Below, piece by piece: positions 1 to 44,755 of a stretch of 44,755 nucleotides of DNA. The notes under the pieces were generated by a model. The model had not been told where the DNA came from. It saw nothing but the letters and a program-made list of their open reading frames with translations, and searched no databases. The stretch is from a virus: positions 1 to 44,755 of the IMG/VR virus record IMGVR_UViG_3300020215_000077; one strand, 5' to 3'. How positions within the stretch are numbered: position 1 is the stretch's first letter; each line of letters begins with the position of its first letter. Made by a program: the position numbers and the translations under genes.

Positions 1-118
1 CACCGCCCTGGCCTTTGCCATCGACGGCACCAACACCGCCTGGAACCTGGGTTACCGGACCTTCTCGGTCGAGAACTTCTGGATCCCGAACAGCGCCACG
101 GCGGCGTCCGTCTGCGGG
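1..118. repeat. Terminal direct repeat, left copy (identical to 44638..44755); circular-assembly overlap or terminal redundancy
   Basis: Bases 1-118 (caccgccctggcctttgcc...gtccgtctgcggg) recur exactly at 44638-44755. The offset 44637 is divisible by 3, so the tail-gene frame is preserved across the junction. Confidence 0.95.
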
Positions 119-394
119 GCGATCTTCAGTGAAGTCTCGGCTCTCAAGAACGAAATCAACTTCTCAACCTCGCTCATCACCCACCTCAATCTCTTGGATC
201 GCGTCGAAATCACCTACGATGCTACGGACTTCTCAACCCGCAACGAATACTGGGATATCGGCGACTGGGACGAGATGAAGTGGGATGGTAGCCGGGGCGA
301 TGCCATCGTCTTGCAAGCTGAGGCGTTTAAGGTATTATCCATTAATATAAACTTGGATAATCTGGAGACGCGCTTTGTCTGCAGGCAGCTCTGA
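2..394 (+). CDS. Tail hub/Tal-like protein, C-terminal part (continuation of 43646..44755 across the circular junction; about 462 aa in total)
   Basis: Hand translation from nt 2 is open in the same frame as the ORF running off the window end, with stop TGA at 392-394. The gene follows the tape measure and Dit-like genes. Confidence 0.8.
   Translation, partial: TALAFAIDGTNTAWNLGYRTFSVENFWIPNSATAASVCGAIFSEVSALKNEINFSTSLITHLNLLDRVEITYDATDFSTRNEYWDIGDWDEMKWDGSRGDAIVLQAEAFKVLSININLDNLETRFVCRQL
311..338 (+). promoter_or_regulatory. Candidate sigma70-type promoter TTGCAA-N16-TATTAT inside the 3' end of the tail gene, upstream of the sugar operon
   Basis: TTGCAA at 311-316 and TATTAT at 333-338, 16-nt spacer. 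It lies in a local AT-rich patch (ggtattatccattaatataaac) that is unusual for this GC-rich genome, and the first sugar-operon gene starts at 375. Confidence 0.4.
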
Positions 395-1334
395 GGAGGC
401 CTACCGGGCCTACCGCGAGCGCTACCTCTCGGCGCCCAGGCTTTCTCTGAAAGCCCCGGTGGACGTGTCGCTGGAGCTTTCTAGCTTCTGCAACATGGCC
501 TGCAGCTACTGCTACCACGCCGACAAGAAGGCGCTGCCGTTCAAGCAGCAGTTCATGCTGCCCGAGACGGTGAAATCGATCCTCCGCCAGGCCGCAGACG
601 CCGGGGTTAACTCGGTGAAATTCAACTGGCGAGGGGAATCGACCATGAATCCCTTCTTCGCAGCTGCCACGGCCACCGCGCGGGGCCTGGCTTCCGGCTC
701 GACCTTCATCGACCGGCTTACCAACTCCAATTTCAAGTTCGATACCGCCAGGGATGACATCTTCGAAGGTCTTTGCAACCAGACGAAGGTGAAGGTCTCC
801 TACGACTCCTTCCGCCCCGAGGTCTTCGAGCGCCAGCGGCGTCTCGGGGACCACGCCCTCACGATGGCCAACATCGACCGCTTCTACAACTGGCCTGGGC
901 GCAAGACGGTCCTCGTCATCCAGGCGGTCAGGACCGCGCTCAACGCCGACGAGGACATCGAGGGCGAGGTCCGCCGCCGCTGGCCAGACGCCCTGGTCTC
1001 GATCCGGGACATGGTGGAAGGCCGGGTGGACCGCGATCTCACCGGGATCAGGCACAAGGCCCGCGACTACTCCGAGCGCCAGTCCTGCATCCAGGCCCAC
1101 GCCCGCCTCATCTTCGATTGGGACGGCGCGGCCGTCCCCTGCTGCCCGGACATCAAGCAGGAGCTTCGGCTCGGCAACATCCGCGAGAAGACCCTCATCG
1201 AGATCTGGGAGAGCCGGGAGGCCACGCGCCTTCGGGCCGACCTCCTCTCAGGCAAGGCGTTCGAGAACTCGCCGTGCAAGAACTGCTCGAGCTTCGAGAC
1301 CTTCAAGGGCTACCAGGCGTCATTCGATTCATGA
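375..1334 (+). CDS. Radical SAM enzyme with C-terminal SPASM/twitch-like Cys-rich domain
   Basis: CX3CX2C motif (SSFCNMACSYCY). The C-terminal cysteine cluster is CIQA...VPCCPD...SPCKNCSSF. TTG start is preceded by GGAGA with a 6-nt spacer. Confidence 0.85.
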   Translation: MSAGSSEEAYRAYRERYLSAPRLSLKAPVDVSLELSSFCNMACSYCYHADKKALPFKQQFMLPETVKSILRQAADAGVNSVKFNWRGESTMNPFFAAATATARGLASGSTFIDRLTNSNFKFDTARDDIFEGLCNQTKVKVSYDSFRPEVFERQRRLGDHALTMANIDRFYNWPGRKTVLVIQAVRTALNADEDIEGEVRRRWPDALVSIRDMVEGRVDRDLTGIRHKARDYSERQSCIQAHARLIFDWDGAAVPCCPDIKQELRLGNIREKTLIEIWESREATRLRADLLSGKAFENSPCKNCSSFETFKGYQASFDS

Positions 1335-2689
1335 CAGGTCGCGTGGGCATCGTGGTCTGCTCGCGCACGGACTCGGCAAGGCTTCCGCAGAAGCCTTTCC
1401 AGAAGGTCCGTGGCAAGTACCTATTGGCTCACCTGCTCGACCGCCTGATCGCCACGGGGCTCCCGGTCTACCTGGCGGTCCCTGAGCGCGAGGTCGGCCG
1501 CTACACAAGGCGGCTTGAGCCCTACCTCGCCCAGCGCCGGGTCATCATCTTCGGCGGCGACAAGAACGACCCGCTAAAGCGCACCCACGACGTGGCCCGC
1601 CACTACGACCTGGATCACGTGATCCGCGTCTGCCACGACAAGGTCTTCATCAACTACAAGCAGGTGGACCACTTCCTCCACCACTACTTCGAGCACCGCC
1701 TCGACTACCTCTACTCCACGAACTTCATCCCGGGCATGGGCTTCGAGATCTTTTCGCGCGAGGTCCTGACCAAGGCGCATGAGACCTTCAAGGGGGTCGA
1801 GCACCTCTCCTATGCGGTGGAGTCGGCGGCCGCCAGGGTCCAGAACCTGACCCACTTCCCCTACAACCGCTCCTGGCTCTCCCGGAAGAAACCCAACGCG
1901 GGCCTGCGCCTCCTCGTGGACTTCCCCGAGGACCTAGATCAGATCGCCCGCCTCATGACGACGCTGGGCTCGGATTGCGGGATCCTCGACATCGTGGCCT
2001 CGATCCCCGACGTCCGGCAGATGAACGCCCTGCCCGAGGTGACCGTCTACACCTGCAGCTTCGAGGACGTGGAGCACCTGGACCGCTGCGTCCAATCGGT
2101 CCTTGGTCAGAGCTACTCATCCTTCGAGTACCTCCTCATCGACGACGGGTCGGTCAAAACGCCTGTCCATAAATACATGGGCAAGTACGCCAAGGACCCA
2201 AGGGTCCACGTCGTGAGGAACCAGGCCAACCGCGGGCTGGCCAGCTCGAGCAACGTCGCCGCGGCAATGGCGCGGGGGCGCTACGTGATTCGCCTCGATG
2301 CCGACGACTTCTTCGTAGACGAGAAGGTCTTGGAGCGCATGGTCCGGCACATGGAGCTTTCCCAGGCCGACATCCTCTACCCCAACAACTACCGGGACGG
2401 GCGGATCCAGGAGGGCTGCGAGCAGCACCACGTCGGCGGCACGATGTTCAAGAAGCGGACGCTGGACTACCTGCGTTTCACCGACGGGCTTCGGCACTAC
2501 GAAGGCCTAGACCTCTACCACCGCGCGATGATGGCCAAGCGCGTCATCGACTACTTCCGGGAGCCCACCTTCTACTACCGCCAGCGGGCGGGAAGCCTAA
2601 GCCGCGATCCCTCGCCGGAGCGCCAGCTGGTGGCCGCCAGGCTCTCGGCCGGGATCGTGGGCGAGGATCTCTTGAAGGAGCCAGCGTGA
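1331..2689 (+). CDS. Fusion protein: SpsF/CMP-sugar cytidylyltransferase-like N-domain plus family-2 glycosyltransferase (GT-A) C-domain
   Basis: ATG 1331 overlaps the upstream stop (ATGA). The N-terminus GIVVCSRTDSARLPQKPF..GKYLL resembles CTP_transf_3/SpsF proteins. The C-terminus has VTVYTCSFEDVEHLDRCVQSVLGQSY..LLIDDGS and RLDADD (DXD). The 773 start in the ORF track is a shadow extension. Confidence 0.8.
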   Translation: MTGRVGIVVCSRTDSARLPQKPFQKVRGKYLLAHLLDRLIATGLPVYLAVPEREVGRYTRRLEPYLAQRRVIIFGGDKNDPLKRTHDVARHYDLDHVIRVCHDKVFINYKQVDHFLHHYFEHRLDYLYSTNFIPGMGFEIFSREVLTKAHETFKGVEHLSYAVESAAARVQNLTHFPYNRSWLSRKKPNAGLRLLVDFPEDLDQIARLMTTLGSDCGILDIVASIPDVRQMNALPEVTVYTCSFEDVEHLDRCVQSVLGQSYSSFEYLLIDDGSVKTPVHKYMGKYAKDPRVHVVRNQANRGLASSSNVAAAMARGRYVIRLDADDFFVDEKVLERMVRHMELSQADILYPNNYRDGRIQEGCEQHHVGGTMFKKRTLDYLRFTDGLRHYEGLDLYHRAMMAKRVIDYFREPTFYYRQRAGSLSRDPSPERQLVAARLSAGIVGEDLLKEPA

Positions 2690-3045
2690 AGAGTGAGGCG
2701 ATCGACATCCTGAAGCTCTATGCCGAGGGGTCGGCCAAGCAGTGGAACGCCTTCCTGGCCGAGGCCTTGAGACGGCGCGACGTCGCCGGACTCACCGACG
2801 TCCTTAGGCGCCTGGCCATGGGCATGGACAACTTGGTCCAGCAAAAGCTCAACACCGACAAGATCAACGTCCTCTTCCTCAGGCTCCAGCGCTCGGTCGA
2901 GAACACGATTCGCGACATCCACCGTCTCAAGAACCCCAACCCCCTCTTCGTCATCTCGGACAAGGCCCTCCACAAGGATCACATCGAGGACAAGCGAAGG
3001 AAGCAGCAGGAGCTCGAGCGCTTCCTCCACAAGGTGAGGTACTGA
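2686..3045 (+). CDS. Hypothetical protein within the sugar operon
   Basis: 119-aa ORF with a GTGA start/stop overlap with the upstream gene. No motif recognised. Confidence 0.6.
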   Translation: MKSEAIDILKLYAEGSAKQWNAFLAEALRRRDVAGLTDVLRRLAMGMDNLVQQKLNTDKINVLFLRLQRSVENTIRDIHRLKNPNPLFVISDKALHKDHIEDKRRKQQELERFLHKVRY

Positions 3046-3047
3046 CC

Positions 3048-3776
3048 ATGCAGCTGTGTGGCGTCATCGCCGAGTGCGGGAACCACGCCCTGGGCAGCGT
3101 CGAGTCCGCCAAGGAGCAGATCCGGGTGGCGCGCGAGTGCGGCGCCACCTACGCCAAGTTCCAGGCGATCGACACGGAGGCGTTCACCGGCGGGTCGATG
3201 ACGCCGGCTTTCTACGAGCTCTGCGATCTTGGCTACGCCCGCTACTTGGAGCTCGTGGCCTACGGTGACGAGCTCGGGATCCCCGTCTTCTTCTCGGTCT
3301 TCGGCCCGAAGTACGCGGCGCTCGCGAGGATCAAGGGCAAGCCCTACAAGATCGCCGGCAGCCAGTTCGAGAAGATGCCCCTGCCGGAGCTCGCGGCCTG
3401 GAACGAGCAGACCGAGCACCCTGTGGTCGTCTCCGTGCCGCATACCGAAGAGAGCGTGATCCGCGAGCGGCGCGAGGCGCTCTCCCACATGTCGGTCATG
3501 TACGTCGTCAACTACCTGCCCGACCAAGTCACCTTCTTCAGTCTCGAGCGCCTGAGGCGCATTCTTAATCAGCCCATCGGCTACTCCTGCCACGCAGCCG
3601 GGGTCGATCACGCCATCGAGGCGATCGCCGAGCACGGGGCGCCCTTGGTGGAGAAGCACTTCAACCTCTGGGGCGACCAGACCTACGACGGCCGCATCTA
3701 CCGCGACTCCCTGCATGCCGCGAGCCCCAAGGAGCTCGAGCGGCTCTGTTCCTTTTACCACGCTCATTCGAGGTGA
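3048..3776 (+). CDS. NeuB-family nonulosonic acid (sialic/pseudaminic/legionaminic-type) synthase-like TIM-barrel protein, no SAF domain
   Basis: Motifs occur in NeuB order: VIAECGNHALGSVESAKEQIRVARECGATYAKFQ, PYKIAGSQ, IGYSCHAAG, LVEKHF and SPKELERL. SD AGGTGAGG precedes the ATG. Confidence 0.8.
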   Translation: MQLCGVIAECGNHALGSVESAKEQIRVARECGATYAKFQAIDTEAFTGGSMTPAFYELCDLGYARYLELVAYGDELGIPVFFSVFGPKYAALARIKGKPYKIAGSQFEKMPLPELAAWNEQTEHPVVVSVPHTEESVIRERREALSHMSVMYVVNYLPDQVTFFSLERLRRILNQPIGYSCHAAGVDHAIEAIAEHGAPLVEKHFNLWGDQTYDGRIYRDSLHAASPKELERLCSFYHAHSR

Positions 3777-3780
3777 CCCC

Positions 3781-5088
3781 GTGATTTGCCCGATCTGCCG
3801 CAACACCGGCGCGGACTGGAAGAACGTTGACCAGTTCCGCCTCAAGCCCGAGGGGATGGCGCTCTGCGACATCTGCGGGTTCATCTCGTATCCGAAAAAG
3901 TACCGCTCCAAGAGCGAGATCGTCGCTTACTACAAGAAGGACTACCGGGCGCCGCCCAACGCCAGCAACGTCCACACGTCGATCCGTAAGGTCCAGTACC
4001 ACGCCCACTTCCTGGCGGACGTCATCAAGGAGTGGCGCGCCGCCGGCAGGAAAGCCGTCGTCACCGACGTCGGCTCGGCGTTCGGCTACTTCCTGAACTG
4101 GATCCGCGGCGAGCTCCCGGGCTCGGAGGTCTGCGGGGTCGAACTGACGACGAGCTATGTGCGCGCGGCCTGGAACCGCTACCAGATCAAAACCACCGAC
4201 GAATTCGACGATTCCCGCCAATACGACCTCGTGGCCTCCTACAAGAGCCTAGAGCACATCCTCGATCCCGACGTCGAGCTGCGGCGCTACATCAAGGCGC
4301 TGAAGCCCGACGGCTTCCTCTACCTCTCGGTGCCGCTCTGGTTCGAGCAGATGAAGAACTTCGGGATGAACGGCTTTGACCTCGAGTACTACTACTCGCC
4401 AAACCACATCAACACCTGGACCCGAAAGCACTTCGAGGGTCTCATCCGGGTCTCGGGCGGCGAGATCGTGAAGCAGAACGACTCCTACTACGAGGCCACC
4501 TACCTCGTGAAACGAAACGATGCGCTCGTCACCGACGACCGCTCGTCGCTCTTCGAGAACCCCGAAGAGATCATCGAGAAGATGACCCGCCTGCAGCAAG
4601 CCTCAGAGGCCTACCAGGCGGGCGACTTTCGGAAGGTCCTAGAGCTCTGGCCCAACTGCCCCTCGGCCTGGTCCACCCATTACGAGATGAACCGCAAGCA
4701 GCTCCACGACCTAGGCTTTGACTACATCTACAAGGAGATCTGCGTCGGCGCGATCGACGCCACCGGCGGCGACGCAGACGCCCACTGGCTCGCGGCCGAC
4801 ATCTGCGCCCGTTACGATCGATACGATGCGGCTATACAGCACCTGAACGAGGCCAACCGCCTGCGCCCCAACATGCCGCATGTTTTCGGGGCTCTGGTGA
4901 ACTACCTCGGCGCCCTCGGCAAATTGGCGAAGGACGAGAAGGCCAAGGTAAACTTTTTCATGCAGGCCCGTCAGGCCGCGCGGATCCTGGGCGAGATCGC
5001 TCCGGAGCACAAGACCGAGGCGCTCACGCTCGAGCTCTACTACGACTCCCACGTCCCGACCCCGTGGGAGCAGCAGGCAGCAGGGTAA
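3781..5088 (+). CDS. Zn-ribbon plus class I SAM-dependent methyltransferase with a TPR-like helical C-terminal region
   Basis: CPICRN...CDICGF zinc ribbon. Motif I-like VTDVGSAFGYF, with DLVASYKSLEHI and LKPDGFLYLSVP downstream. GTG 3781 follows SD GAGGTGA, and the ORF-track start 3715 overlaps the upstream gene. Confidence 0.8.
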   Translation: MICPICRNTGADWKNVDQFRLKPEGMALCDICGFISYPKKYRSKSEIVAYYKKDYRAPPNASNVHTSIRKVQYHAHFLADVIKEWRAAGRKAVVTDVGSAFGYFLNWIRGELPGSEVCGVELTTSYVRAAWNRYQIKTTDEFDDSRQYDLVASYKSLEHILDPDVELRRYIKALKPDGFLYLSVPLWFEQMKNFGMNGFDLEYYYSPNHINTWTRKHFEGLIRVSGGEIVKQNDSYYEATYLVKRNDALVTDDRSSLFENPEEIIEKMTRLQQASEAYQAGDFRKVLELWPNCPSAWSTHYEMNRKQLHDLGFDYIYKEICVGAIDATGGDADAHWLAADICARYDRYDAAIQHLNEANRLRPNMPHVFGALVNYLGALGKLAKDEKAKVNFFMQARQAARILGEIAPEHKTEALTLELYYDSHVPTPWEQQAAG

Positions 5089-5091
5089 GCC

Positions 5092-5982
5092 ATGGCGTTT
5101 CTGACCTCCGGCGCGTTCACCACCTTCACCGCGAACACCAAGGCGAAGTCGGCCGAGGTCAACGCCAACTTCGCCGCGCTCTATAACTTCCTGAACACGA
5201 CATCGAGCGAGATCCTGGTCGGCACCGTCTGGCAACGGATCGCCCAGACGGCGGCGAGCCACACGCTGACCGCCAACGACGGCATCCGCACGCTGCTGAT
5301 CGCCGCCAACACGACCACCGGCTACACGGTGACCCTGCCAACGGCCGCCGGCTGCACCCACCGAATGATCACGATAAAGCACGTCGGCACGACGGCAGGC
5401 CTGCTCACGATCGACGGCGCGGGCTCGGAGACGATCGACGGCGAGTCGGACGTCAACATCCGGACGCAGTACGACGCCTTGACGCTTCACTGCGACGGCA
5501 CGAAATGGCACTCGCTCCGCTCGCACAGCTTCCCTTACGGCGTGCGCGTTGACGATGGCTCGGACCAATCGACGCTGAACCGCTACCTCGATAGCGGCAC
5601 CTGGACCCCGGCCATCTCGTCGGCCGGCGGCGGCACCTACAACCACACGACCCAAATCGGCTACTACGCCCGCGTCGGCAAGATGACCTTCTTCTGGGGC
5701 CAGGTCGGGTGGGACTCGTCCACGAACGGCAGCGGCGCCATCCGCGTCACGGGCTTTCCCGTGGCCGCCGCTCAGCGCGCCAAGGTGGCCTTGAACACCA
5801 GCGTTGTGAGCCATTCGGGCGCCACGGACGGCTGGTTCAACGGCGAGATCGACACCGGCAACAGCTACATGACGATCGAGAAGTGCGCCTTGAGCCTTGC
5901 CTCGGCGTCGGTCTCCATCGGCGACAACAACAGTCCGACCGCTCGCACCATCGCCTTCTCAGGGGTCTACCTGACCGCCTGA
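5092..5982 (+). CDS. Tail fibre / receptor-binding protein
   Basis: The N-terminal motif KAKSAEVNANFAALYNFL is typical of phage tail-fibre N-termini. The C-terminal half is Gly/Ser/Thr-rich, and the gene lies in the tail module. Confidence 0.7.
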   Translation: MAFLTSGAFTTFTANTKAKSAEVNANFAALYNFLNTTSSEILVGTVWQRIAQTAASHTLTANDGIRTLLIAANTTTGYTVTLPTAAGCTHRMITIKHVGTTAGLLTIDGAGSETIDGESDVNIRTQYDALTLHCDGTKWHSLRSHSFPYGVRVDDGSDQSTLNRYLDSGTWTPAISSAGGGTYNHTTQIGYYARVGKMTFFWGQVGWDSSTNGSGAIRVTGFPVAAAQRAKVALNTSVVSHSGATDGWFNGEIDTGNSYMTIEKCALSLASASVSIGDNNSPTARTIAFSGVYLTA

Positions 5983-6032: not shown

Positions 6033-7031
6033 ATGGACGGCAGGCAAACGCAGCGAGGCCTCGCCACGACTATGAGGGTCGTGGCGGGCCTCATCCTCGT
6101 CTCGGTCGTCGCGGCCTGTGGACGGGACCGCGCACCTGAGTCGTCGAACTACCAGTTCCTACCAGCTGCCGAGGACTTGGCAAGCTTAGGCGAGAAGCCT
6201 GCCGAAATCCTCAGGCGCTTCCGCTCTCGCTTCCTCGAGGGGGGCCAGGTCGTCTCCCGGCGCGGTGACGTGCCCGAGCACCTGGGCGACGCTCTCATCT
6301 GGTCGGGCGTAGCGCTCGCGGCCCTCTCTTGCGAAGAGGGCCAGGTCGTCGAGGACGCCCTGGCCGCCATGACCAATCGCTATGGCACCTTCGTACGCTT
6401 CTCGCCGCTTCCCGCCAAGTACATGGGCAACGAGGTCTCGCCCGACGGCGTGATCGGCGTCACTTACGGGCTGGCCTCGCGCCTTAGGCGATGTCCTGAG
6501 CGACGCGCAGCGATCACCGCCATCTGGCGGCAGCACCGCGAGTTCGTCGCTGCCCACGGCGGCCAGCTATACCCGGGCGCTCAGTACGGCACGCTCGTGG
6601 ACGGTCTCAACACGCCCGGCGAGCTCTTAGCTCATCAGCTGGACTTTCGCAGCAGCGTGCATTCCGACGGTCTCACGGCGCTCGACACGGTGGTCGTCGG
6701 CTGGGCCTTCTTCACCGTGCAGAAGCGGGTCAGCTGCTACCGAATTCATATTGGCCTGCTCGCGTGGCTCGCCGCAGACGTCCTAGGCGCGCCGCCATCG
6801 GAGTCAGCAAAGGCGCGCCTGTGCCGGGTTACGGACAAATCCGGACAAGCGCTCGCAGATTTTGTGTGTGCTCGGCTATCCGGTAAAATGTTTCTCGAAG
6901 CATACCAACTCAATCAGTGGGAGTACGCGGCGCAGCGCTGCACGGCGTGGGAGTCACCCGATGGCCAGGAAGGCCTCGAGACACCTGCTCTGGACTACCT
7001 GCTGATTCATCACCTGGCCAGGAGGGCCTAG
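6033..7031 (+). CDS. Putative lipoprotein, function unknown
   Basis: Signal-peptide-like MRVVAGLILVSVVAAC with a lipobox-like VAAC. GGAGG lies 7 nt upstream of ATG 6033. Confidence 0.65.
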   Translation: MDGRQTQRGLATTMRVVAGLILVSVVAACGRDRAPESSNYQFLPAAEDLASLGEKPAEILRRFRSRFLEGGQVVSRRGDVPEHLGDALIWSGVALAALSCEEGQVVEDALAAMTNRYGTFVRFSPLPAKYMGNEVSPDGVIGVTYGLASRLRRCPERRAAITAIWRQHREFVAAHGGQLYPGAQYGTLVDGLNTPGELLAHQLDFRSSVHSDGLTALDTVVVGWAFFTVQKRVSCYRIHIGLLAWLAADVLGAPPSESAKARLCRVTDKSGQALADFVCARLSGKMFLEAYQLNQWEYAAQRCTAWESPDGQEGLETPALDYLLIHHLARRA

Positions 7032-7034: not shown

Positions 7035-7307
7035 ATGGCGGTCGTGATTTCCGTTCCGGTGGCCGAGAAGACGTATGCCGTCGCCCAGGCGGGCGTCGGC
7101 TTCGTCAAGGCTCTGAGGGACACCCTGGCCGACGGCTGGCAGACGGGTAAGGACGCGCCGGCGGTGATGGCGGCGGCGATGGAGCTCCTGCCCGCGCTTC
7201 GCGGCGCTGGTGGTGTGGCCGGCGAGCTCGTGGCCGAGCCCAAGGCGTTTGCCTCGGCGCTCGTGCTGACGGGTGTCGATGTCGTGGCGCTCTTCGTCCG
7301 GAAGTAA
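7035..7307 (+). CDS. Hypothetical protein (lysis region)
   Basis: 90-aa ORF with AGGAGGG 7 nt upstream of the ATG. Confidence 0.55.
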   Translation: MAVVISVPVAEKTYAVAQAGVGFVKALRDTLADGWQTGKDAPAVMAAAMELLPALRGAGGVAGELVAEPKAFASALVLTGVDVVALFVRK

Positions 7308-7341
7308 CGCCACCCAGCCCATCAGATCGGAGGGCACGACG

Positions 7342-7569
7342 ATGTCGTGGCTGTCTATCCTGCTGCTCGTGATCCGCTACCTCCCGGCGGCGATCTCCAT
7401 CATCCGGGAGATCATCCGGCTCATCGATGGTCTGCGTAAGAGCGATGCTGTCGGTGCCGCGGCCCTGCGCGCCAAGCTCGAAGAGGCGGTGGACGAGGCG
7501 GCGCGGACCGGCAGCGTTGGCCCGCTCAGGCGGCTGCTCGCCCAGGCGCGCGAAGGCAGGCGACTCTGA
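7342..7569 (+). CDS. Small membrane protein, holin candidate
   Basis: ATG 7342 follows GGAGGG. N-terminal hydrophobic segment SWLSILLLVIRYLPAAISII, then a charged tail. Confidence 0.55.
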   Translation: MSWLSILLLVIRYLPAAISIIREIIRLIDGLRKSDAVGAAALRAKLEEAVDEAARTGSVGPLRRLLAQAREGRRL

Positions 7570-7850
7570 TGCCGCCCGACGCTCTGGCCGAGACGGTAGG
7601 CGTGCTCGCCGCAGCCCTTGCTGCAGGCGCTGCCTACCTCGTTCGCAACTCGTTTGAGCGCCTTCTCAACAAGATGGACGACGTCGAGGCGGCCGTCCGC
7701 GACGCCACCTACCGGCTGACTGCGGTCGAGACCAAGGTCGAGCCGATGAGCGAGGCCTTGGAGGACGTGAAGCGCCACGGCGAAGAGCTAGCCGCACTCC
7801 GGGTGACGGTCAGATCTCTGTCTGCCAACGGTCACGATCACGAGGGGTAG
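7569..7850 (+). CDS. N-terminal TM plus coiled-coil protein (i-spanin-like or holin-associated)
   Basis: TGATG overlap with the upstream gene. TM-like VGVLAAALAAGAAYLV is followed by a heptad-like charged region. Confidence 0.5.
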   Translation: MPPDALAETVGVLAAALAAGAAYLVRNSFERLLNKMDDVEAAVRDATYRLTAVETKVEPMSEALEDVKRHGEELAALRVTVRSLSANGHDHEG

Positions 7851-7853: not shown

Positions 7854-8402
7854 TCAGACCACATGCGTCCAGATCCGGCCATTCTTGATGTTTCTGACAA
7901 CCGTCCAATCGACGCCGAAACGAGCCGCGATGGCTTTGCAGCTCAGGCCCGAGGCGTAGAGGGTCCTGATCTCGCGAACCGCATTCTCGGTCAGCTTCGC
8001 TTGATGATTGCGCTCCCCGAGCATAGCGGTTCCGTGCACGCGCTTGTGGAGGATGTTTTCCCGCACCGTCACCCACGCCAGATTCTCAATGCGGTTGTCT
8101 GTGCGGCACCCGTTCAGGTGCGCCGCCTGCATTCCTGCGGGGCGCAGGCCGGCGAATGCCTCAAGAACGAGCGTGTGGATGTGCGTTGGCCGCTGTTGGC
8201 GCGGCGGTCTCGTAAGCGTGACCCGCGTGTAACCAGTGTTGTGCGCACTCGGCTTGAGAAGGCGGCCGCGCGACAACTTGATGCTGTGTAGGGAGCGTAC
8301 GCGGCCAAGGCACGAGACCTCGTACAGACCTTCGTATCCAACAACCGGCCGCCACACCTCTGCGGCGAAATAGTGGCTCAAGGGCGGATCGACTGAAGGC
8401 AC
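7854..8402 (-). CDS. HNH homing endonuclease (NUMOD4-like N-terminus, HNH_3 core, C-terminal HTH)
   Basis: Motifs WRPVVGYEGLYEVSCLGRVRS, HIHTLVLEAFAG...HLNGCRTDNRIENLAWVT..EN and a C-terminal HTH-like SGLSCKAIAARFGV. The start is placed at GTG 8402 (GGGAG upstream). The maximal ORF extends to 8510 and would overlap the endolysin start. Confidence 0.8.
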   Translation of the reverse strand: MPSVDPPLSHYFAAEVWRPVVGYEGLYEVSCLGRVRSLHSIKLSRGRLLKPSAHNTGYTRVTLTRPPRQQRPTHIHTLVLEAFAGLRPAGMQAAHLNGCRTDNRIENLAWVTVRENILHKRVHGTAMLGERNHQAKLTENAVREIRTLYASGLSCKAIAARFGVDWTVVRNIKNGRIWTHVV

Positions 8403-8460
8403 GGAACCAACTCCCTGCAAGCGTTTCGCGGCGGCGGAGTGTAGCACGAAGGAGGTCAGA

Positions 8461-9009
8461 ATGTCAGGCGGTTGGGTAGCCCGCTTGCCCTTCCCCCTGA
8501 TCCGCTCCATCGCCGAGGCCTACCACGTAGACCACCGGCTGGTGGCAGCGATCTGCCAGGTGGAGAGCTCGGGCAATCCGAAGGCGATTCGCAGAGAGCC
8601 CCACTGGCAGTACTGGCACAAGCCCGAGGAGTGGGCGCGAAAGTTCGTCGATCCCAAGGCGGCAGGACTCGTCGCGACGCGTCCCAAGGAGGAGCAGCTG
8701 GCGTGGGCCGCCGCCCAGCTCGAGGCGGAGAAGGAAAGGCAGCGTCACAGTTACGGCTTAATGCAGGTCATGGGAGCCGTTTGTCGCGAGTTGGGCTACG
8801 CGCACGCGACGATGGACCTGCTGTTCGAGCCCGCCATCGGCATCGCTTACGGCTGCAAGGTTCTCCAGAAGCTCTCCAAGTACACGAGCGTCGCCGACAA
8901 GGCCGCCGCCTACAACGCGGGCCTGCCGCGAAAAGACCCCAATACCGGTGAGTACAGAAACCAGAAGTACGTGGGCAAGGTGCTCGCCCTTCTGGCTGAT
9001 TTCAAGTGA
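8461..9009 (+). CDS. Endolysin, soluble lytic transglycosylase (SLT/GH23-like)
   Basis: Motifs QVESSGNPKA, GLMQVMG and AYNAG. Strong SD AGGAGG precedes the ATG. Confidence 0.85.
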   Translation: MSGGWVARLPFPLIRSIAEAYHVDHRLVAAICQVESSGNPKAIRREPHWQYWHKPEEWARKFVDPKAAGLVATRPKEEQLAWAAAQLEAEKERQRHSYGLMQVMGAVCRELGYAHATMDLLFEPAIGIAYGCKVLQKLSKYTSVADKAAAYNAGLPRKDPNTGEYRNQKYVGKVLALLADFK

Positions 9010-9026
9010 CAGCAGGGAGGCACAAA

Positions 9027-13127: not shown

Positions 13128-13426
13128 TGCACTTCGACGGTCCCGACTACGACGCCGTTCTCGACGAGGACCGCCTCACCGCCCAGCTCTCCCGCGTGAA
13201 GCGCCTGATGCTGGACGGCCGCTGGCGGACCCTGCGCGAGATCAGCAACAGCACCTTGGATCCGCCCGCCTCAGTGTCCGCACGGCTGCGCGATCTCAGG
13301 AAGTCGCGCTTCGGGGCGTATCTGGTCGAGCGCCGGCGCCGCGGTCCGGGGATCCGCGGGCTCTTCGAGTACCGGGTCGTGGCGCCCGCCGAGCTCCACC
13401 CGCCGCTCGAGGAGGCGTTCCAATGA
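13124..13426 (+). CDS. Winged-helix DNA-binding protein (putative)
   Basis: ATGA overlap with the upstream gene. WRTLREIS...VSARLRDLRK..G is wHTH-like. Confidence 0.55.
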   Translation: MMHFDGPDYDAVLDEDRLTAQLSRVKRLMLDGRWRTLREISNSTLDPPASVSARLRDLRKSRFGAYLVERRRRGPGIRGLFEYRVVAPAELHPPLEEAFQ

Positions 13427-13551
13427 CCCCCGAAATCCCCACCTGGGCCTGGCGCGCCGCGGCCATCATCTTCGCCCTCTCGACGGCGCTGCTGGGGCTG
13501 GCGCTGGTGGCGGTGGGGTGGCGGGAGGAACTAACGCATGACGACGGCTAA
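13423..13551 (+). CDS. Small membrane protein (42 aa)
   Basis: ATGA overlap with the upstream gene and a single TM, AAAIIFALSTALLGLALVAVG. Confidence 0.45.
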   Translation: MTPEIPTWAWRAAAIIFALSTALLGLALVAVGWREELTHDDG

Positions 13552-20348: not shown

Positions 20349-20672
20349 CAGGCGATCCAGCTTATCCTCGATGGCCTTTAGGCGGGACTCGATAGCATGC
20401 GGCGGCGGCGGAACCGACTTATCACGGACCAGCTTGTATCCAGGAGGAACGAGCAGCTCAATGGGCGTGACGCCGAGCACCTCCCCGATCTTCACGAGCG
20501 TCTCCCACTCCGGGAGGTGCTTCCCCGCTCCTTTTTCAAGGTCGCTGACCGGCGAATTCGAGGTCCAGCCCAGCTTCTTGGCGAAGTCGGCCTGCGACAT
20601 TTTCCGATTAGGGTCGTCTCGCCAGCTCTTGATTCGGGCCCCGAGCACGGCCCTCAGGTCAAAGAGCTCCAT
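20322..20672 (-). CDS. CI-like XRE-family repressor (HTH only, no S24 peptidase domain)
   Basis: MSQADFAKKLGWTSNSPVSDLEKG HTH_3-like segment; 116 aa. Divergent from the Cro-like gene. Confidence 0.75.
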   Translation of the reverse strand: MELFDLRAVLGARIKSWRDDPNRKMSQADFAKKLGWTSNSPVSDLEKGAGKHLPEWETLVKIGEVLGVTPIELLVPPGYKLVRDKSVPPPPHAIESRLKAIEDKLDRLLDGKHPAR

Positions 20673-37058: not shown

Positions 37059-37062
37059 CTCG

Positions 37063-38140: not shown

Positions 38141-39154
38141 ATGCAGCAAGCCCAAGAGGCAGATGCCCGTCGCCACGAGCTAGACGTCCGCCGCCAGTCC
38201 CAAGCCGCCTACGCCCAGTGGGCCAAGATCTGGCGCGAGCACGCCAAGGAGCATGCCCGCCACGAGATGAAGGACATGCTGGCCCTCCAGAACGTGGGGA
38301 TCGGCAAGGCATGTCTGGTCATCGCCAACGGCCACAGCTTCGAGAAGAACCTGGAGACGATCCGCAAGTACCAGGGGAACGTCGATATCCTGGCCGTGGA
38401 CAAGTGCGTGAGGCATTGCCTCGAGAACGGGATCACGCCGACCTACGCCTTGGTCTGCGACGCGAACGTCTCCTACGAGACCTACATGCAGCCGGTGGAG
38501 CACCTGCTCCAGGACACGATCCTCTTGGCCAACGTCTGCGCCAACCCCAAGTGGGCGGCCAGCGGCAACTGGAAGGACCGCTACTTCTTCGTCAACAAGG
38601 ACGTCTTGAAGTCCGAGGCCGAGTTCATGGCGCTCTCGGGCTGCAAGAACGTCATCCCGGCCGGCACCAACGTCAGTAACTGCGCCATCGTCGTCCTGAC
38701 CCAGTGCGACGAGGCCGGCAAGCGCAACTTCTTCGGCTACGACAAGCTGCTCATGATCGGCTTCGATTACGCGTGGGGCGACGACTCCTACTACGCGTTT
38801 GACCGCGAGGGCGGCGGCAAGCGGCACTACATGAAGACGGTCTACGCCTTCAACCTGCGCTCGGAGCTTGTATATACCTCGTCCAACCTGCTGTTCTCCG
38901 CCAAGTGGATCGAGCGCTACATCACTGTCTTCAAAGTGCCGGCCGTCCAGTGCTCCACGGATTCCATCCTGCGCGGCTGGAAGCTTGGAAACCTCGAAGA
39001 GCAGCTGCAATATCGCTACAAGCCCGAAGATGCGAAGCGTGTAATCGACCTGTTAGAATATCGACGTAACCTCCAAGCCCAGATCGACGGGATCAACCGG
39101 CAGATCATGGACGTCGGCCGGGATCACTTCAAACAGCTTATGAGGACAAGCTAA
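38141..39154 (+). CDS. DUF115/MptE-like (Maf, motility-accessory-factor type) putative nonulosonate glycosyltransferase
   Basis: GKACLVIANGHSFEKNLETIRKYQGNVDILAVDKCVRHCLENGITPTYALVCDAN matches the DUF115 core pattern (G..IvGnGPSL...i.avd.a...L...gI.PD..v..D). The gene lies directly upstream of the tail tube gene. Confidence 0.6.
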   Translation: MQQAQEADARRHELDVRRQSQAAYAQWAKIWREHAKEHARHEMKDMLALQNVGIGKACLVIANGHSFEKNLETIRKYQGNVDILAVDKCVRHCLENGITPTYALVCDANVSYETYMQPVEHLLQDTILLANVCANPKWAASGNWKDRYFFVNKDVLKSEAEFMALSGCKNVIPAGTNVSNCAIVVLTQCDEAGKRNFFGYDKLLMIGFDYAWGDDSYYAFDREGGGKRHYMKTVYAFNLRSELVYTSSNLLFSAKWIERYITVFKVPAVQCSTDSILRGWKLGNLEEQLQYRYKPEDAKRVIDLLEYRRNLQAQIDGINRQIMDVGRDHFKQLMRTS

Positions 39155-40200
39155 TGGCGGTCGGCGACAGCTCGCTCTTCGCAGGCGAAAGCTACCTGGG
39201 GCTTGGTCGCGAGACCACCTACGGCACCTACGCGACCGCCGGCGCCGGGCTCGACTTCATCTCGGCTGCGATCAAGACGACGAAAGACGCCAAGATCCTG
39301 GAGCAGGTCGAGCGCAAGCGGACCATGTCCAAGCAGATGTCCTTGGGCAAGACGGTCGAGGGCGAGGTCGAGGCGTACTTTACGCCCGACGTCACCGCCA
39401 TGGGCTATCTCCTGCAGAACGCGTTTGGCGGCACGGTCACCTCGGCCACCGCCACCGGCGAGACGGCGGGTGGGTCGGCGTTCACGCACACCTTCTCCGA
39501 AGGGTCGATGGACCAGACCTACAAGTCGCTCTCGGCCAACATGAGGAAGGGCCCGAGCTCGGGCGGCAAGGTCTGGCGGTATCTTGGCGGCCGGGTCAAC
39601 TCGCTTTCGCTCCAGGCCGAGCTCGACGAGCCGCTCAAGATCAACGCGGCGTTGATCTTCAAGGACTCGACCCAGCAGTCTGACGACATCGAAACCCTGA
39701 TGACGGCCACCGCCTGGGAGCCCTTGTCCTTCGTCAACGGTCGCTTCTCGGTGGAGACGAGCTTCGCGGCGCTCACCACGACCTCCTTCTGGCACGTTCA
39801 GTCGGTCAGCTTTTCGCTGAACAACAACCTGAAGAACGACACCAACGCCCGCCGCATCGGCTCCGACGTCCTCTCGGTCCTGCCGGTCGGGGTCCAGAGC
39901 TACGAGCTCTCCTGCCAGATCCGCTTCGATACCACGACGGCGTATGACGCCATGATCGCGGCGACGAAGCTGGCGGCGGAGTTCGAGTTCCAGGGGACGA
40001 CTCTCACGACCTCGTCCATCAAGCGCGGTCTCAAGGTCCAGTTCCAGAAGGTCTACGTGAAGGACGCCGGCGACCCCGAGGTCTCGGGCCCGGACGGGAT
40101 CCTCATGGCCAACGTCGTCTTCAACGTCCTGCGTGACGAGTCGGCCTCGGGCTACGCTGTCCGGGCACTCCTCACCAACTCGGTGGCGAACTACAGCTGA
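39154..40200 (+). CDS. Major tail tube protein
   Basis: 348-aa Ser/Thr-rich ORF immediately upstream of the G/G-T chaperone and the tape measure gene. Confidence 0.7.
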   Translation: MAVGDSSLFAGESYLGLGRETTYGTYATAGAGLDFISAAIKTTKDAKILEQVERKRTMSKQMSLGKTVEGEVEAYFTPDVTAMGYLLQNAFGGTVTSATATGETAGGSAFTHTFSEGSMDQTYKSLSANMRKGPSSGGKVWRYLGGRVNSLSLQAELDEPLKINAALIFKDSTQQSDDIETLMTATAWEPLSFVNGRFSVETSFAALTTTSFWHVQSVSFSLNNNLKNDTNARRIGSDVLSVLPVGVQSYELSCQIRFDTTTAYDAMIAATKLAAEFEFQGTTLTTSSIKRGLKVQFQKVYVKDAGDPEVSGPDGILMANVVFNVLRDESASGYAVRALLTNSVANYS

Positions 40201-42869: not shown

Positions 42870-43649
42870 ATGGAGATCCTGCGAAAGAACTACGCTGAGA
42901 CCACCACCCAGTTCGTGGTGAACTCCAACACGGCGACCGTGGCCAACGTCCTAAACCCGGACGTGCGCTTTCAGTACGCGTCGGACAACTTCACCGACGA
43001 CAACACCACGGTTTCGATGCGGATCAACTTCGATCAGACCCAGACGATCGACCGCATCGCCTTGGTGGGCCATAACCTGAAGTCGTTCACCGTCTACTAC
43101 AACGGGACGACGGCAAGCACGTTCGCCCTGACCTCGACGGCCAACACCTCAGCGTCCAACTACTCGACCAACTCCGACACGTCCCACTACTTCGCCTTTT
43201 CGCCCGTGGCCTGCACCTCGGTCTCGATCGACATGAAGGCCACGATCACGCCGAACCAGAACAAGACCCTTGGGTATCTGGTCATCTCCGATAAGCGCAC
43301 GGACTTCGGCGGTCGGGTCCCGTCTGCCCAGAACTACAAGCCAGTTCTCGACACCCAGGCGGTGGTCCACCGGCTCTCTGACGGCGGGACGCGCATCCAG
43401 ACGCTCGAGGACAAGTGGGCGGTGCAGCTCTCGCTCGACTTCGTCACCGAGACGGTCCGGTCCGAGCTCCGGTCCATCTTCGATGACCATGAGGAAGTCA
43501 TCTTTTGCCCCTTCGGGACCACCACCGGCTGGGATGCGGTCGTATTCCCGTGTGTCTGGGAGGGGGGCTTTAACTTCTACCAGCACTCGGACAACGCCGC
43601 TGACGCCGGCTTCTCGGGGTCCTTGGTCCTAAGGGAGACCCCGCAGTGA
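42870..43649 (+). CDS. Distal tail protein (Dit)-like, with an N-terminal beta-sandwich domain that may bind carbohydrate
   Basis: Lies directly after the tape measure gene. IDRIALVGHNLKSFTVYYNG resembles discoidin/galactose-binding-like strands. Confidence 0.5.
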   Translation: MEILRKNYAETTTQFVVNSNTATVANVLNPDVRFQYASDNFTDDNTTVSMRINFDQTQTIDRIALVGHNLKSFTVYYNGTTASTFALTSTANTSASNYSTNSDTSHYFAFSPVACTSVSIDMKATITPNQNKTLGYLVISDKRTDFGGRVPSAQNYKPVLDTQAVVHRLSDGGTRIQTLEDKWAVQLSLDFVTETVRSELRSIFDDHEEVIFCPFGTTTGWDAVVFPCVWEGGFNFYQHSDNAADAGFSGSLVLRETPQ

Positions 43650-44755
43650 CGGCGACCCTATGGGATGCCAATAACTGGGACAACGAGCTCACCTGGGACG
43701 ATGGCACGGCCACGATCCTGGAGATGATCAAGCGGCCCCACGTCCGCGTCTTCCGCCGCGCCTACATTAAGCGCCGGCTCCTGGCCACCGGGCTCTTCGA
43801 GACCGACTGGTACGAGATCACCCGAGACGTCAAACGCTGGGGGTCGATCAACAGCAACATCGACGTCGAGCGGGTGGGAAAGCTCGACTTCAATGGCCTG
43901 CAGCTCGTTGTCTCTAACATCGACGGTAGCTACAACCCGGACGACAACGAGGACTCGCTGTGGTCGGGATACGCCAACCAGCAACGATCCCTGGTCAAGA
44001 TCGAGTGCGGCTTCTACAACCAGTACCGGAGCGTGGACGGGGTCTGGCGGACCGACGAGGTGCCCGAGGATCCCACCGTCTTCGTGGGTATCATCTCGGG
44101 CAACATCGACGTCTCGGACGCCAACGAGGTCACGCTCGAGATCCAGCCGGTCACCCAGGTCTTCCGCGACTTCCCAGCGCATCTCGTCACCGGCTTCACG
44201 AGCACGGGGATCACGGCCAGCCAGTACATCCAGCTCCTCAGGGACCTGACCTCGGGTGCTGGCACCTACGTCTTCCGGCCGTTCTTTGGCAACGACTCGG
44301 CCTACTTCGAGCTCACCTCGACGAGCCAGGTCTATGCTGGCCTGAATACCAGTACCGCAGCCGACTTCTACCAGATGACCGTCTGGGACGTGGTGGAGCG
44401 TCTGGCGCAGGCCGAGAACTTCGTGGCCTACATCACACCCACCGGGAAGTTCCGGTGGGTGCCGAAGACCGTCTCCGCCTCGACGCAGTATAAGTTCTTC
44501 GGCTTGGGGTTCAGCCCGGATCGTGAGTACGGACACACGCTGAAGCGGATCTACCGTTACGGGAAGAAGCTCACGAGCTTCTACTCGCGCGTCGCCGTGA
44601 AGTACGACAAGGCCGACACCAGCACGTCGTTCGTTAGCACCGCCCTGGCCTTTGCCATCGACGGCACCAACACCGCCTGGAACCTGGGTTACCGGACCTT
44701 CTCGGTCGAGAACTTCTGGATCCCGAACAGCGCCACGGCGGCGTCCGTCTGCGGG
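43646..44755 (+). CDS. Tail hub/Tal-like protein, N-terminal part (continues at 2..394 across the junction)
   Basis: GTG 43646 overlaps the upstream stop (GTGA). Hand translation (VTATLWDANNWDNELTWDDG...) is open to the window end. The ORF is absent from the track because it has no stop inside the window. Confidence 0.8.
   Translation, partial: MTATLWDANNWDNELTWDDGTATILEMIKRPHVRVFRRAYIKRRLLATGLFETDWYEITRDVKRWGSINSNIDVERVGKLDFNGLQLVVSNIDGSYNPDDNEDSLWSGYANQQRSLVKIECGFYNQYRSVDGVWRTDEVPEDPTVFVGIISGNIDVSDANEVTLEIQPVTQVFRDFPAHLVTGFTSTGITASQYIQLLRDLTSGAGTYVFRPFFGNDSAYFELTSTSQVYAGLNTSTAADFYQMTVWDVVERLAQAENFVAYITPTGKFRWVPKTVSASTQYKFFGLGFSPDREYGHTLKRIYRYGKKLTSFYSRVAVKYDKADTSTSFVSTALAFAIDGTNTAWNLGYRTFSVENFWIPNSATAASVCG
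44638..44755. repeat. Terminal direct repeat, right copy (identical to 1..118)
   Basis: Exact 118-nt match to the window start. Confidence 0.95.

Follow-up and report, generated by a model that had tools for sequence, protein, structure and literature searches.

A sugar-acid gene cassette in the late operon of a temperate phage

The IMG/VR virus record IMGVR_UViG_3300020215_000077 was analyzed over its whole length of 44,755 nt (the window). At positions 375–5,088, between a putative tail hub gene and a tail fibre/baseplate-like gene, it carries five tightly packed genes on the same strand (Table 1). These encode a radical S-adenosylmethionine (SAM) enzyme, a cytidylyltransferase fused to a family 2 glycosyltransferase (GT2; the fusion is called CT/GT2 below), a 119-aa protein, a NeuB-family synthase that condenses phosphoenolpyruvate (PEP), and a zinc-ribbon methyltransferase. 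A first-pass annotation made from the sequence alone had described this cassette, and its open reading frames (ORFs) and Pfam families were confirmed. A sixth gene of interest, encoding a Maf-like protein, lies next to the tail tube gene. The gene set, which this temperate, uncultured phage shares with many relatives, suggests that the phage sugar-coats its own tail. We computed which genes are present and in what order, along with folds, catalytic motifs, conservation and co-occurrence, and from these we infer the enzymatic steps, the sugar identity and the acceptor proposed below.

The earlier claim of tight coupling held at all junctions. The radical SAM gene overlaps the putative hub gene by 20 nt, two further junctions are overlaps (ATGA at 1331 and GTGA at 2686) and the others are gaps of 2, 4 and 3 nt. 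Such overlapping or 2–4-nt junctions leave no space for an independent promoter or terminator. A sigma-70-like site at 311–338, just upstream of the radical SAM start, was considered as an independent promoter and rejected as a chance occurrence (two sites found versus 1.3 expected); in relatives this AT-rich stretch is conserved coding sequence for the hub C terminus. The G+C content at third codon positions of the cassette genes (0.88–0.91) equals that of the structural genes, which, with the identities to relatives (Table 1), indicates old resident genes and not a recent moron. None of the six proteins (five cassette proteins and the Maf-like protein) contains a transmembrane-like segment, and genes for a flippase, a polymerase or a lipid-carrier transferase are missing from the cassette. 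Among 20 other large ORFs scanned, none was recognized as encoding a dehydratase, aminotransferase, acetyltransferase or epimerase, in agreement with the earlier remark that the upstream sugar-nucleotide enzymes are absent.

Table 1 Cassette genes, flanking tail genes and the Maf-like/tube gene pair. Coordinates refer to the window; identities compare this phage with three close relatives (L001, L004 and L007).
Feature	Position	Strand	Length (aa)	Basis of assignment	Identity (%)
Putative tail hub (Tal-like), N-terminal part	43646..44755	+	461 (whole protein)	Position only	
Putative tail hub, C-terminal part	1..394 (stop 392–394)	+			
Radical SAM enzyme with C-terminal twitch/SPASM Fe-S domain	375..1334	+	319	Pfam	76–78
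Cytidylyltransferase-GT2 bifunctional protein (CT/GT2)	1331..2689	+	452	Pfam, NCBIfam, PDB	69–72
Helical protein	2686..3045	+	119	No family match	
NeuB-family PEP-condensing synthase, TIM barrel only	3048..3776	+	242	Pfam NeuB (PF03102)	41–56
SAM-dependent methyltransferase with N-terminal CxxC...CxxC zinc ribbon and helical C-terminal domain	3781..5088	+	435	Pfam	59–65
Tail fibre/baseplate-like protein	5092..5982	+	296	PHROG 20556 (baseplate protein), E 1e-8	29–45
Mini-Maf (Maf/MptE-like), putative CMP-ulosonic-acid:protein glycosyltransferase	38141..39154	+	337	PF01973	67–70
Tail tube protein, proposed acceptor	39154..40200	+	348	Pfam Phage_tube_2, 99.8 bits; PHROG 290	76–85

Recurrence of the cassette among related phages

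Viral contigs were searched with an alignment of the radical SAM protein, about 30 related loci (labelled L below) were retrieved and their gene content was mapped with phmmer. A viral-contig scan with the single NeuB-like protein as query gave no match. The block comprising the radical SAM gene, CT/GT2, the small ORF, a PEP-condensing enzyme and the methyltransferase recurs in genomes of 26–64% G+C, and its four enzyme genes travel together in more than 20 genomes. In closer relatives the cassette follows the hub gene, at times with one or two additional genes of fibre type in between, as in L013 and L017. A more distant group (L023/L035, L025, L027, L028, L030 and L033) carries it on the upstream side of terminase and portal. 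The position between hub and fibre, which the first-pass annotation had emphasized, thus holds in this genome and is not fixed across the group, and the name 'hub' is itself positional. Two relatives have HNH insertions within the cassette, at L009 6957–7487 and L027 4394–4918, the latter recognized from sequence only, and in L009 an ORF of the LysR-type helix-turn-helix (HTH) kind (2635–3027) is inserted between the radical SAM and CT/GT2 genes.

For the radical SAM protein, 470 representatives were found at E <= 1e-10 among 1.84 billion cluster representatives. A search of 185,579 species-representative genomes returned two matches only, both on phage-like contigs in metagenome-assembled genomes (MAGs) of Cellvibrionaceae and Pseudobdellovibrionaceae. 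The relative binned as Cellvibrionaceae is L009. Where the L009 and L010 MAGs came from hints at aquatic Gram-negative hosts; binning of phage contigs is unreliable. Megablast with 8 kb against 50,697 GenBank phage records gave no DNA-level match, and the portal protein is about 27% identical to Bacillus phage portals. In tblastn searches of GenBank phages, the NeuB-like, Maf-like and radical SAM proteins gave no match or a single 24% match in a 484-kb uncultured phage.

A reduced Maf-like protein is linked to the tail tube gene

The Maf-like gene that had been picked out at 38,141 scored 57.5 bits against PF01973 (cut-off 34.6), and its predicted fold is closest to Maf. An AlphaFold2 model from a 59-sequence alignment (predicted local distance difference test, pLDDT, 94.4) was compared with the PDB using Foldseek. 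The top match was the Magnetospirillum Maf flagellin glycosyltransferase 5MU5 (E 1.5e-11, query TM-score (TMq) 0.57, 296 columns), followed by the archaeal MptE pterin pyrophosphokinase (HPPK) 8SD5, SteA and GT29 sialyltransferases (E 2e-3 to 2e-2). Maf proteins measure about 600 aa and comprise three domains, an N-terminal Rossmann-like domain, a central PF01973 domain resembling the sialyltransferase Cst-II and a C-terminal helical bundle (PMC11339370). The phage model departs from this architecture, consisting of a central alpha/beta domain with one long helix on each side, and we refer to the protein as mini-Maf. Against the PseD flagellin-modification model of NCBIfam it scored 22.9 bits versus a cut-off of 670. 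Proteins of the same family occur in BFVD in uncultured Caudovirales, where automatic naming has given them labels like 'MptE-like'; the best of them is 50% identical, with TMq 0.83. Homologues number 687. Of the best 120, each has an identity of 50% or more along the aligned stretch, and nearly all of these are 316–337 aa long; their contigs extend up to about 50 kb.

The mini-Maf stop codon overlaps the start of the tube gene, and wherever the region is visible in a genome, the Maf-like gene directly precedes the tube gene. Instead of the flagellin or flagellar association of known Maf genes, the neighbour is thus a tube gene; no flagellar genes were found in the genome. The arrangement persists in L035 (33% G+C, radical SAM protein 31% identical), the one distant genome with its tail region retrieved: its cassette is 16 kb distant, on the upstream side of the terminase gene, and its Maf-like gene still directly precedes and overlaps the tube gene. 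Moreover, Maf-like gene and cassette co-occur in 14/14 evaluable genomes. This adjacency, including that in L035, together with the co-occurrence provides the strongest argument that mini-Maf acts on the tube using the cassette product. The Maf–tube link is the fixed point of the system, and the hub–fibre position is incidental.

The tube protein consists of 21% Ser+Thr. Ser/Thr-rich loops lie at approximately aa 94–108, 207–211, 260–262 and 281–288, with Ser/Thr columns conserved across 15 relatives; the corresponding sequences (TVTSATATGETAGG, LTTTS, FDTTT and GTTLTTSS) are candidate sites only.

Around this gene pair, long ORFs overlap at 36895–37536 and 37235–38140, upstream of the Maf-like gene, with about 176 aa of the 301-aa ORF conserved in L010, and a chaperone-like ORF (40137–40583) overlaps the end of the tube gene by 64 nt. 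These overlaps may reflect mis-called starts or programmed frameshifts typical of tail chaperone genes.

Interchangeable synthases and a putative CMP-activating enzyme point to an ulosonic acid

The NeuB-like protein belongs to the NeuB family as first proposed, with 60 bits against Pfam NeuB (cut-off 22.1) and catalytic motifs that align with those of Neisseria meningitidis NeuB (1XUU). Compared with the PDB, its family profile matched PseI 8H2C (2.7e-16), 6NCS, 1XUU (1e-12) and SpsE structures; the best single-sequence match was 6NCS, a solved bacterial NeuB of 290 aa that lacks the SAF domain. The motifs IAExG, KxQ, YKIxG, GYSxH and EKHF align between the family and solved NeuBs, at about 28% identity to canonical members. 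Residues E9, K37/Q39, K101, H182 and E202/H204, invariant in 12 members, align to E25, K53/Q55, K129, H215 and E234/H236 of 1XUU, which we take to be the metal- and PEP-binding residues. An invariant Gln aligns with E134, and in this phage the SDH motif has Cys in place of its Asp.

In sister phages a different enzyme takes the same place. Between the small ORF and the methyltransferase gene, about 14 genomes carry a NeuB-like gene, and this slot is taken by a DAHP_synth_1 gene, related to 3-deoxy-D-arabino-heptulosonate 7-phosphate (DAHP) synthase, in about 10 (L017, L018, L019, L024, L023/L035, L025, L027, L028, L029 and L030), which have no NeuB there. The DAHP_synth_1 proteins measure 240–304 aa, except for a 198-aa fragment in L030. 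Eight scored 77–164 bits against Pfam DAHP_synth_1 (E 1e-21 to 5e-48; cut-off 25.5); for the enzymes of L028 and L030, the assignment comes from a phmmer search using the one from L017 (12587–13426). Five are nearest to type I-beta DAHP synthase (NCBIfam TIGR01361, 193–247 bits, just under the 267.75 cut-off), and models of 3-deoxy-D-manno-octulosonate 8-phosphate (KDO8P) synthase gave these five 52–77 bits. On a neighbour-joining tree of the radical SAM proteins, calculated without bootstrap, NeuB-type and DAHP-synthase-type cassettes are interleaved, which implies more than one synthase swap.

NeuB, DAHP synthase and KDO8P synthase each join PEP to an aldose or its phosphate, forming a 3-deoxy-2-ulosonic acid, and the CTP_transf_3 family (KdsB, NeuA, PseF and SpsF) activates such acids as sugars linked to cytidine monophosphate (CMP). 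The interchange of the two synthases next to a CTP_transf_3 domain therefore argues that the conserved function is to make and CMP-activate a 3-deoxy-2-ulosonic acid, not necessarily one with nine carbons. The pseudaminic or legionaminic acid of the first-pass annotation goes beyond the evidence, given a synthase that is SAF-less and below the NeuB and PseI equivalog thresholds and about ten relatives with a DAHP-synthase-like enzyme in the slot. On these comparisons the product is best stated as an ulosonic acid of seven, eight or nine carbons, with 'nonulosonic' widened to 'ulosonic'.

The cytidylyltransferase-GT2 fusion, including the DDGS and DADD motifs noted earlier, was verified in both halves. 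The CTP_transf_3 domain (aa 8–208) scored 53.2 bits (cut-off 22.6) and matched PDB 6OEW (E 8e-10), and the Glycos_transf_2 domain (aa 240–368) scored 86.6 bits (cut-off 23.3) and matched 6P61 (E 2e-16). Four relatives share the motifs SRTDS.RLP.KPF, DDGS and LDADD without variation. NCBIfam KdsB models score the cytidylyltransferase domain far below their cut-offs, and so the assignment is to the family and not to a sugar specificity. All but two of the compared loci keep the fusion; the P0092 contig and L034 show GT2 alone. Some distant cassettes add a nucleoside diphosphate (NDP)-sugar epimerase/dehydratase of the short-chain dehydrogenase/reductase (SDR) type.

A gene for a small HAD_PNKP-type phosphatase lies immediately upstream of the Maf-like gene in L007 (1–201) and L014 (9536–9976) and is absent here; its product could dephosphorylate a phosphorylated ulosonate. 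As a partner of DAHP-synthase-type cassettes this phosphatase was rejected, occurring only in these two loci and without correlation with cassette type. L014 also contains, directly after CT/GT2 and overlapping the small ORF, an 87-aa ORF (20477–20740) with an Acb2/Tad1-hairpin domain (PF24729, an anti-CBASS/Thoeris sponge family).

Tailoring enzymes and the small helical protein

The radical SAM protein scored 50.3 bits against Pfam SPASM (cut-off 21.5) and 28.8 bits against Radical_SAM, 0.7 under the 29.5 cut-off. Its CX3CX2C motif (C39/C43/C46) is invariant in relatives, and five Cys (238, 256, 257, 301 and 304) lie in the C-terminal domain. The best PDB sequence matches were BtrN (E 5e-8) and the anaerobic sulfatase-maturating enzyme anSME (E 2e-4). 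Solved relatives include the protein-modifying anSME and SkfB, and NCBIfam matches are mostly peptide or protein maturases; the core is also weakly viperin-like (PADLOC pVip 25.8 bits, and in NCBIfam). A full SPASM domain has seven Cys and two auxiliary clusters, and BtrN, a twitch enzyme with one cluster, acts on an aminocyclitol. With five Cys and BtrN as best match, the protein would have one auxiliary cluster (twitch) and not the full seven-Cys SPASM. The SPASM score and the CX3CX2C motif agree with the radical SAM/SPASM label given earlier, whose second half we amend: a twitch enzyme with a single cluster, of the kind seen in radical SAM dehydrogenases, seems likelier than a complete SPASM maturase.

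For the methyltransferase, the match to Pfam Methyltransf_23 (49.9 bits) was accompanied by matches to Methyltransf_12 and Methyltransf_11. Its start is most likely GTG at 3781 and not ATG at 3715, since a GAGG Shine–Dalgarno sequence precedes the former and homologues measure 433–436 aa. Relatives keep the zinc-ribbon Cys and the motif-I D(V/I)GSAFG unchanged, and nearly all cassette variants contain the gene. Methyltransferase and zinc ribbon are thus as first annotated, and the TPR-like tail is less certain, with TPR_16 and TPR_14 matches below threshold (E about 0.003–0.005).

The 119-aa ORF, listed as unassigned from the start, remained so, with no match in Pfam, PHROGs, NCBIfam or PADLOC. 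Its 17 homologues, all without recorded Pfam domains, lie on metagenomic contigs of up to 44.8 kb. The AlphaFold2 model (pLDDT 85.5) has five helices and found no Foldseek match in the PDB (best E = 3). A separate SAF-like subunit was ruled out by this all-helical model, and a precursor of a ribosomally synthesized and post-translationally modified peptide is unlikely, as the protein has no Cys and is conserved along most of its length.

Proposed glycosylation of the virion and competing explanations

The likeness to bacterial flagellin-glycosylation islands pointed out in the first-pass annotation stands in the form of an ulosonic-acid gene set that includes a Maf-fold protein and is co-oriented with the late structural operon. 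Two roles had been proposed for it, decoration of the phage's own tail and remodelling of host glycans; Maf–tube adjacency and the lack of membrane segments favour the former, with the latter as its main rival. We give an even chance to the proposal that a virion protein, probably the tail tube, is glycosylated in the cytoplasm with a phage-made, possibly methylated ulosonic acid.

Under this proposal, the cassette would be expressed together with the late structural genes. The NeuB-like enzyme would condense PEP with a host-supplied aldose to a 3-deoxy-2-ulosonic acid, a step that the DAHP-synthase-like enzyme would perform in sister phages, and the CTP_transf_3 domain would convert the acid and cytidine triphosphate (CTP) to the CMP-sugar. 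While the tail assembles or earlier, mini-Maf would then attach the CMP-activated acid to Ser/Thr residues in a virion protein, for which the tube is the likeliest candidate. The fused GT2 domain would probably add a second, ordinary NDP-sugar, a step that the SDR of some distant cassettes could feed. The zinc-ribbon methyltransferase probably methylates the glycan, or possibly protein, and the BtrN/anSME-like radical SAM enzyme probably acts on the sugar, by oxidation or some other modification, and possibly on a side chain of a protein instead. Flagellin is glycosylated by Maf systems while still in the cytoplasm, ahead of export, and phage tails likewise assemble there; with all-soluble proteins, this makes virion glycosylation a natural fit. 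Characterized Mafs accept CMP-N-acetylneuraminic acid (CMP-Neu5Ac) and CMP-ketodeoxyoctonate (CMP-Kdo) in addition to their native nonulosonate donor (PMC11339370; bioRxiv 10.1101/2020.06.03.131540), and with such donor promiscuity the transferase could cope with an exchanged sugar-acid synthase. Tentatively, and with less than even confidence, we extend the proposal to an uncultured lineage of siphophages with Mu-like heads (26–64% GC), in which mini-Maf would coat the tube with a methylated, phage-made ulosonic acid, its skeleton changed by synthase swaps and further altered by a novel BtrN-like radical SAM modification.

Virion glycosylation is argued here from sequence and model evidence, and several observations weigh against it. 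The NeuB-like protein has no SAF domain (PF08666), ending 4 nt before the next gene, and the 12/12 close homologues of 235–249 aa contain PF03102 only; in N. meningitidis NeuB this domain presumably completes the neighbouring active site by supplying an Arg. In NCBIfam the protein scored 63.1 bits against the NeuB equivalog TIGR03569 (cut-off 399.65) and 47.8 bits against the PseI equivalog TIGR03586 (cut-off 340.25). Being SAF-less and far below both cut-offs, it is uncertain in activity and substrate. No gene for an aldose substrate or a phosphatase was found among the scanned ORFs of the genome. Mini-Maf is about half the size of characterized Mafs, without their N- and C-terminal domains, and PF01973 includes pterin pyrophosphokinases, its second-best structural match (E 1e-5). 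The neighbouring tube gene hints at the acceptor without proving it. L010 has the Maf-like gene, radical SAM gene, CT/GT2 and small ORF without NeuB, DAHP synthase or methyltransferase, and in some hosts a host-made ulosonic acid such as Kdo may suffice, or this contig may be rearranged. No cultured relative was found in the GenBank phage searches, and with an integrase encoded, lysogenic conversion is conceivable. Just past the truncated cassette of the low-GC L010, genes for a PNP_UDP_1 phosphorylase and a phosphoribosyltransferase lie on the minus strand (13148–14334).

Remodelling of the host surface, which we regard as unlikely although it is the main rival, would see a CMP-ulosonic acid, made or altered by the cassette, built into lipopolysaccharide (LPS), capsule or flagellin by host machinery, in the lysogenic state or during infection; the effects would be serotype change, a block to superinfection or easier escape of progeny from cell debris. 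The integrase of this temperate phage is in line with it, and host sugar metabolism would be needed anyway, as no precursor genes were seen. Acinetobacter baumannii prophages furthermore encode EpaA, a CTP_transf_3 domain fused to a reductase, and EpaB, and large cyanophages carry KdsA and KdsB, read as cell-wall-modifying (PMC12801897). Several features of the cassette speak against that role: it has no flippase, polymerase, membrane-anchored glycosyltransferase or transmembrane segment, it overlaps late structural genes without space for its own promoter, and its composition is identical to that of core genes. It is a lineage-wide core module in hosts of 26–64% GC and not a sporadic moron, and the Maf-like gene stays with the tube gene even where the cassette has moved. 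Gtr-type serotype-conversion modules consist of a membrane GtrA flippase, a GtrB bactoprenol glycosyltransferase and GtrC, in a separate unit near the attachment site. In the present phage we found only weak PHROG GtrB-like matches (E 8e-6), confined to the GT2 core, in a cassette that is embedded in the late operon and without transmembrane segments.

Less probable again is that the radical SAM enzyme, the methyltransferase and possibly GT2 are maturases of tail proteins (oxidation, crosslinking or methylation), with the sugar-acid genes separate or secondary and a main product other than a glycan. The relatedness of the radical SAM enzyme to anSME, SkfB and further maturases points in this direction, a helical, weakly TPR-like methyltransferase tail could bind protein, and L010 keeps the radical SAM and CT/GT2 genes without a PEP-condensing enzyme. 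Yet BtrN, with its aminocyclitol substrate, is the better match of the radical SAM enzyme, and the two presumed maturases form one block with CT/GT2 and a condensing enzyme in more than 20 genomes, with an NDP-sugar SDR added in some variants, which points to sugar chemistry. Protein maturation may also coexist with glycosylation of the virion by an ulosonic acid.

A product outside the virion, such as a hypermodified DNA base, a modified nucleotide, an anti-defence small molecule or metabolic help with aromatic amino acids, is improbable: phage glycosyltransferases do often hypermodify DNA (PMC12619734), the radical SAM core has its viperin-like trace, distant relatives carry the cassette outside the tail module and L014 has its Acb2/Tad1-like ORF, but the scanned ORFs include no base-hydroxymethylase or kinase gene, a PADLOC search for defence or anti-defence identity gave no significant match, a DAHP synthase of aromatic metabolism would not occupy the NeuB slot, and the Maf fold and its fixed place beside the tube gene would go unexplained.

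Relation to known glycosylation systems

The closest counterpart of the proposed virion glycosylation is the O-glycosylation of flagellin by Maf (Campylobacter, Aeromonas, Clostridium botulinum and Magnetospirillum; 5MU5). The two have in common the PF01973 domain and its fold, a genome that also encodes a NeuB-type synthase and an activating enzyme of the CTP_transf_3 family, and, by analogy, a soluble, cytoplasmic reaction on the subunit of a helical polymer before its assembly. In contrast to Maf systems, the phage gene is next to tail tube and not flagellin and encodes 337 aa instead of about 630 aa. Enzymes for UDP-sugar precursors (PseB/C/H/G or LegB/C/H/G) are lacking among the scanned ORFs; additions are the radical SAM enzyme, the GT2 fusion and the zinc-ribbon methyltransferase; and the synthase is SAF-less and interchangeable with a DAHP-synthase-like enzyme.

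In mycobacteriophages, according to two papers, capsid and tail tube proteins are modified by phage-encoded glycosyltransferases together with an O-methyltransferase (PMC11600133; PMC12619734). The present phage resembles them in encoding a glycosyltransferase and a methyltransferase, with the tube as target (here proposed). Theirs is a system of tandem glycosyltransferases, for which neither paper mentions a sugar-acid synthase, CMP-activating enzyme, Maf or radical SAM enzyme (PMC11600133; PMC12619734); it belongs to Actinobacteria hosts and is experimentally proven, whereas the present system is predicted from sequence. The phage is not a strict member of either system: two Maf domains, the flagellar context and a SAF domain are lacking, the synthase stays below the equivalog cut-offs, and neither paper on the mycobacteriophage system mentions sugar-acid synthesis (PMC11600133; PMC12619734).

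Phage enzymes acting on related sugars differ more. EpaA and EpaB of A. baumannii prophages re-epimerize capsule pseudaminic acid (PMC12053666). EpaA is likewise a CTP_transf_3 fusion of temperate phages, acting on a nonulosonic acid, in a two-gene unit that is sporadic in 17 different prophages, edits a host-made capsule sugar and, unlike the present cassette, has no synthase, Maf or link to tail genes (PMC12053666). Large cyanomyoviruses, too, pair a PEP-condensing ulosonate synthase with a CMP-activating enzyme in KdsA and KdsB; these are jumbo T4-like phages with the genes amid many LPS-type genes, read as modifying the host surface, and no Maf-type transferase or tail-gene adjacency was described (PMC12801897).

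Bacterial SpsE/SpsF-type clusters for nonulosonic acids provide the best PDB matches for three phage domains (6NCS, 6OEW and 6P61, presumably from a Leptospira nonulosonic acid locus), at low identities. These clusters carry the full precursor pathway, as in L006, unlike the phage. In Bacillus subtilis, the sps legionaminic acid pathway serves the spore crust.

In an incomplete literature search we found no paper on a phage Maf or on phage protein glycosylation with an ulosonic acid. In the literature reached, phage-encoded virion glycosylation was confined to mycobacteriophages, used ordinary glycosyltransferases and dampened antibody recognition. If correct, our proposal would represent the first ulosonic-acid glycoprotein in a bacterial virus and a second, independent origin of virion glycosylation, with the flagellin Maf system miniaturized and re-targeted to another helical polymer. 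Such a new phage-surface chemistry could shield virions from host or predator recognition and affect charge, interactions with mucus or exopolysaccharide, and tail stability. The interchange of NeuB- and DAHP-synthase-like enzymes would constitute a natural experiment on the donor promiscuity of Maf-type transferases, of use for glyco-engineering, for which mini-Maf and tube would offer a compact, soluble two-protein pair. The twitch-type radical SAM enzyme and the zinc-ribbon methyltransferase may provide new sugar-tailoring reactions.

Genome organization and neighbouring genes

The ends of the record are identical (1–118 = 44638–44755), and this exact 118-nt overlap indicates that the genome is a 44,637-bp circle in which the putative hub gene crosses the junction. 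It has a G+C content of 64% and no tRNA genes. An integrase (27232–28365), RecT and an HTH repressor-like protein are encoded, from which we conclude that the phage is temperate.

A single long late operon on one strand spans from the large terminase to the fibre/baseplate-like gene. It begins with the large terminase, a portal fused to a Mu-F-like domain, a protease and the major head protein, proceeds through a tail completion protein, the PF01973 gene, the tail tube, the chaperone-like ORF and a tape-measure-like gene, and ends with a 259-aa gene, the 461-aa gene, the five cassette genes and the fibre/baseplate-like gene. The 259-aa (Dit candidate) and 461-aa (hub candidate) genes had no PHROGs or Pfam match, and their names are positional; they overlap by GTGA, and the putative hub is conserved in relatives. 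In the fibre-like protein, the N-terminal NTKAKSAEVN is kept in relatives and the C terminus is variable (29–45% identical). In L013, a Mom-like (PF25680) DNA-modification gene (1–670) lies upstream of the terminase genes and fits the Mu-like head module of this group.

Directly after the fibre gene, a 332-aa ORF (6033–7031) with a signal-peptide-like N terminus and a lipobox-like VAAC motif had no match in Pfam, NCBIfam, PHROGs or PADLOC; its product could be a lipoprotein for superinfection exclusion or lysis. Three small ORFs with transmembrane-like hydrophobic stretches follow (7035–7850), possibly holin-like. Between these and an SLT lytic transglycosylase gene (8461–9009), an HNH/NUMOD4 homing-endonuclease-like gene (7854–8510) is the sole minus-strand gene of that stretch. 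The end of the SLT gene is overlapped by a gene for a trypsin-like serine protease (9006–9995; Pfam E 5e-16), with homologues in relatives at L008 6076–7059 and L010 14378–15121.

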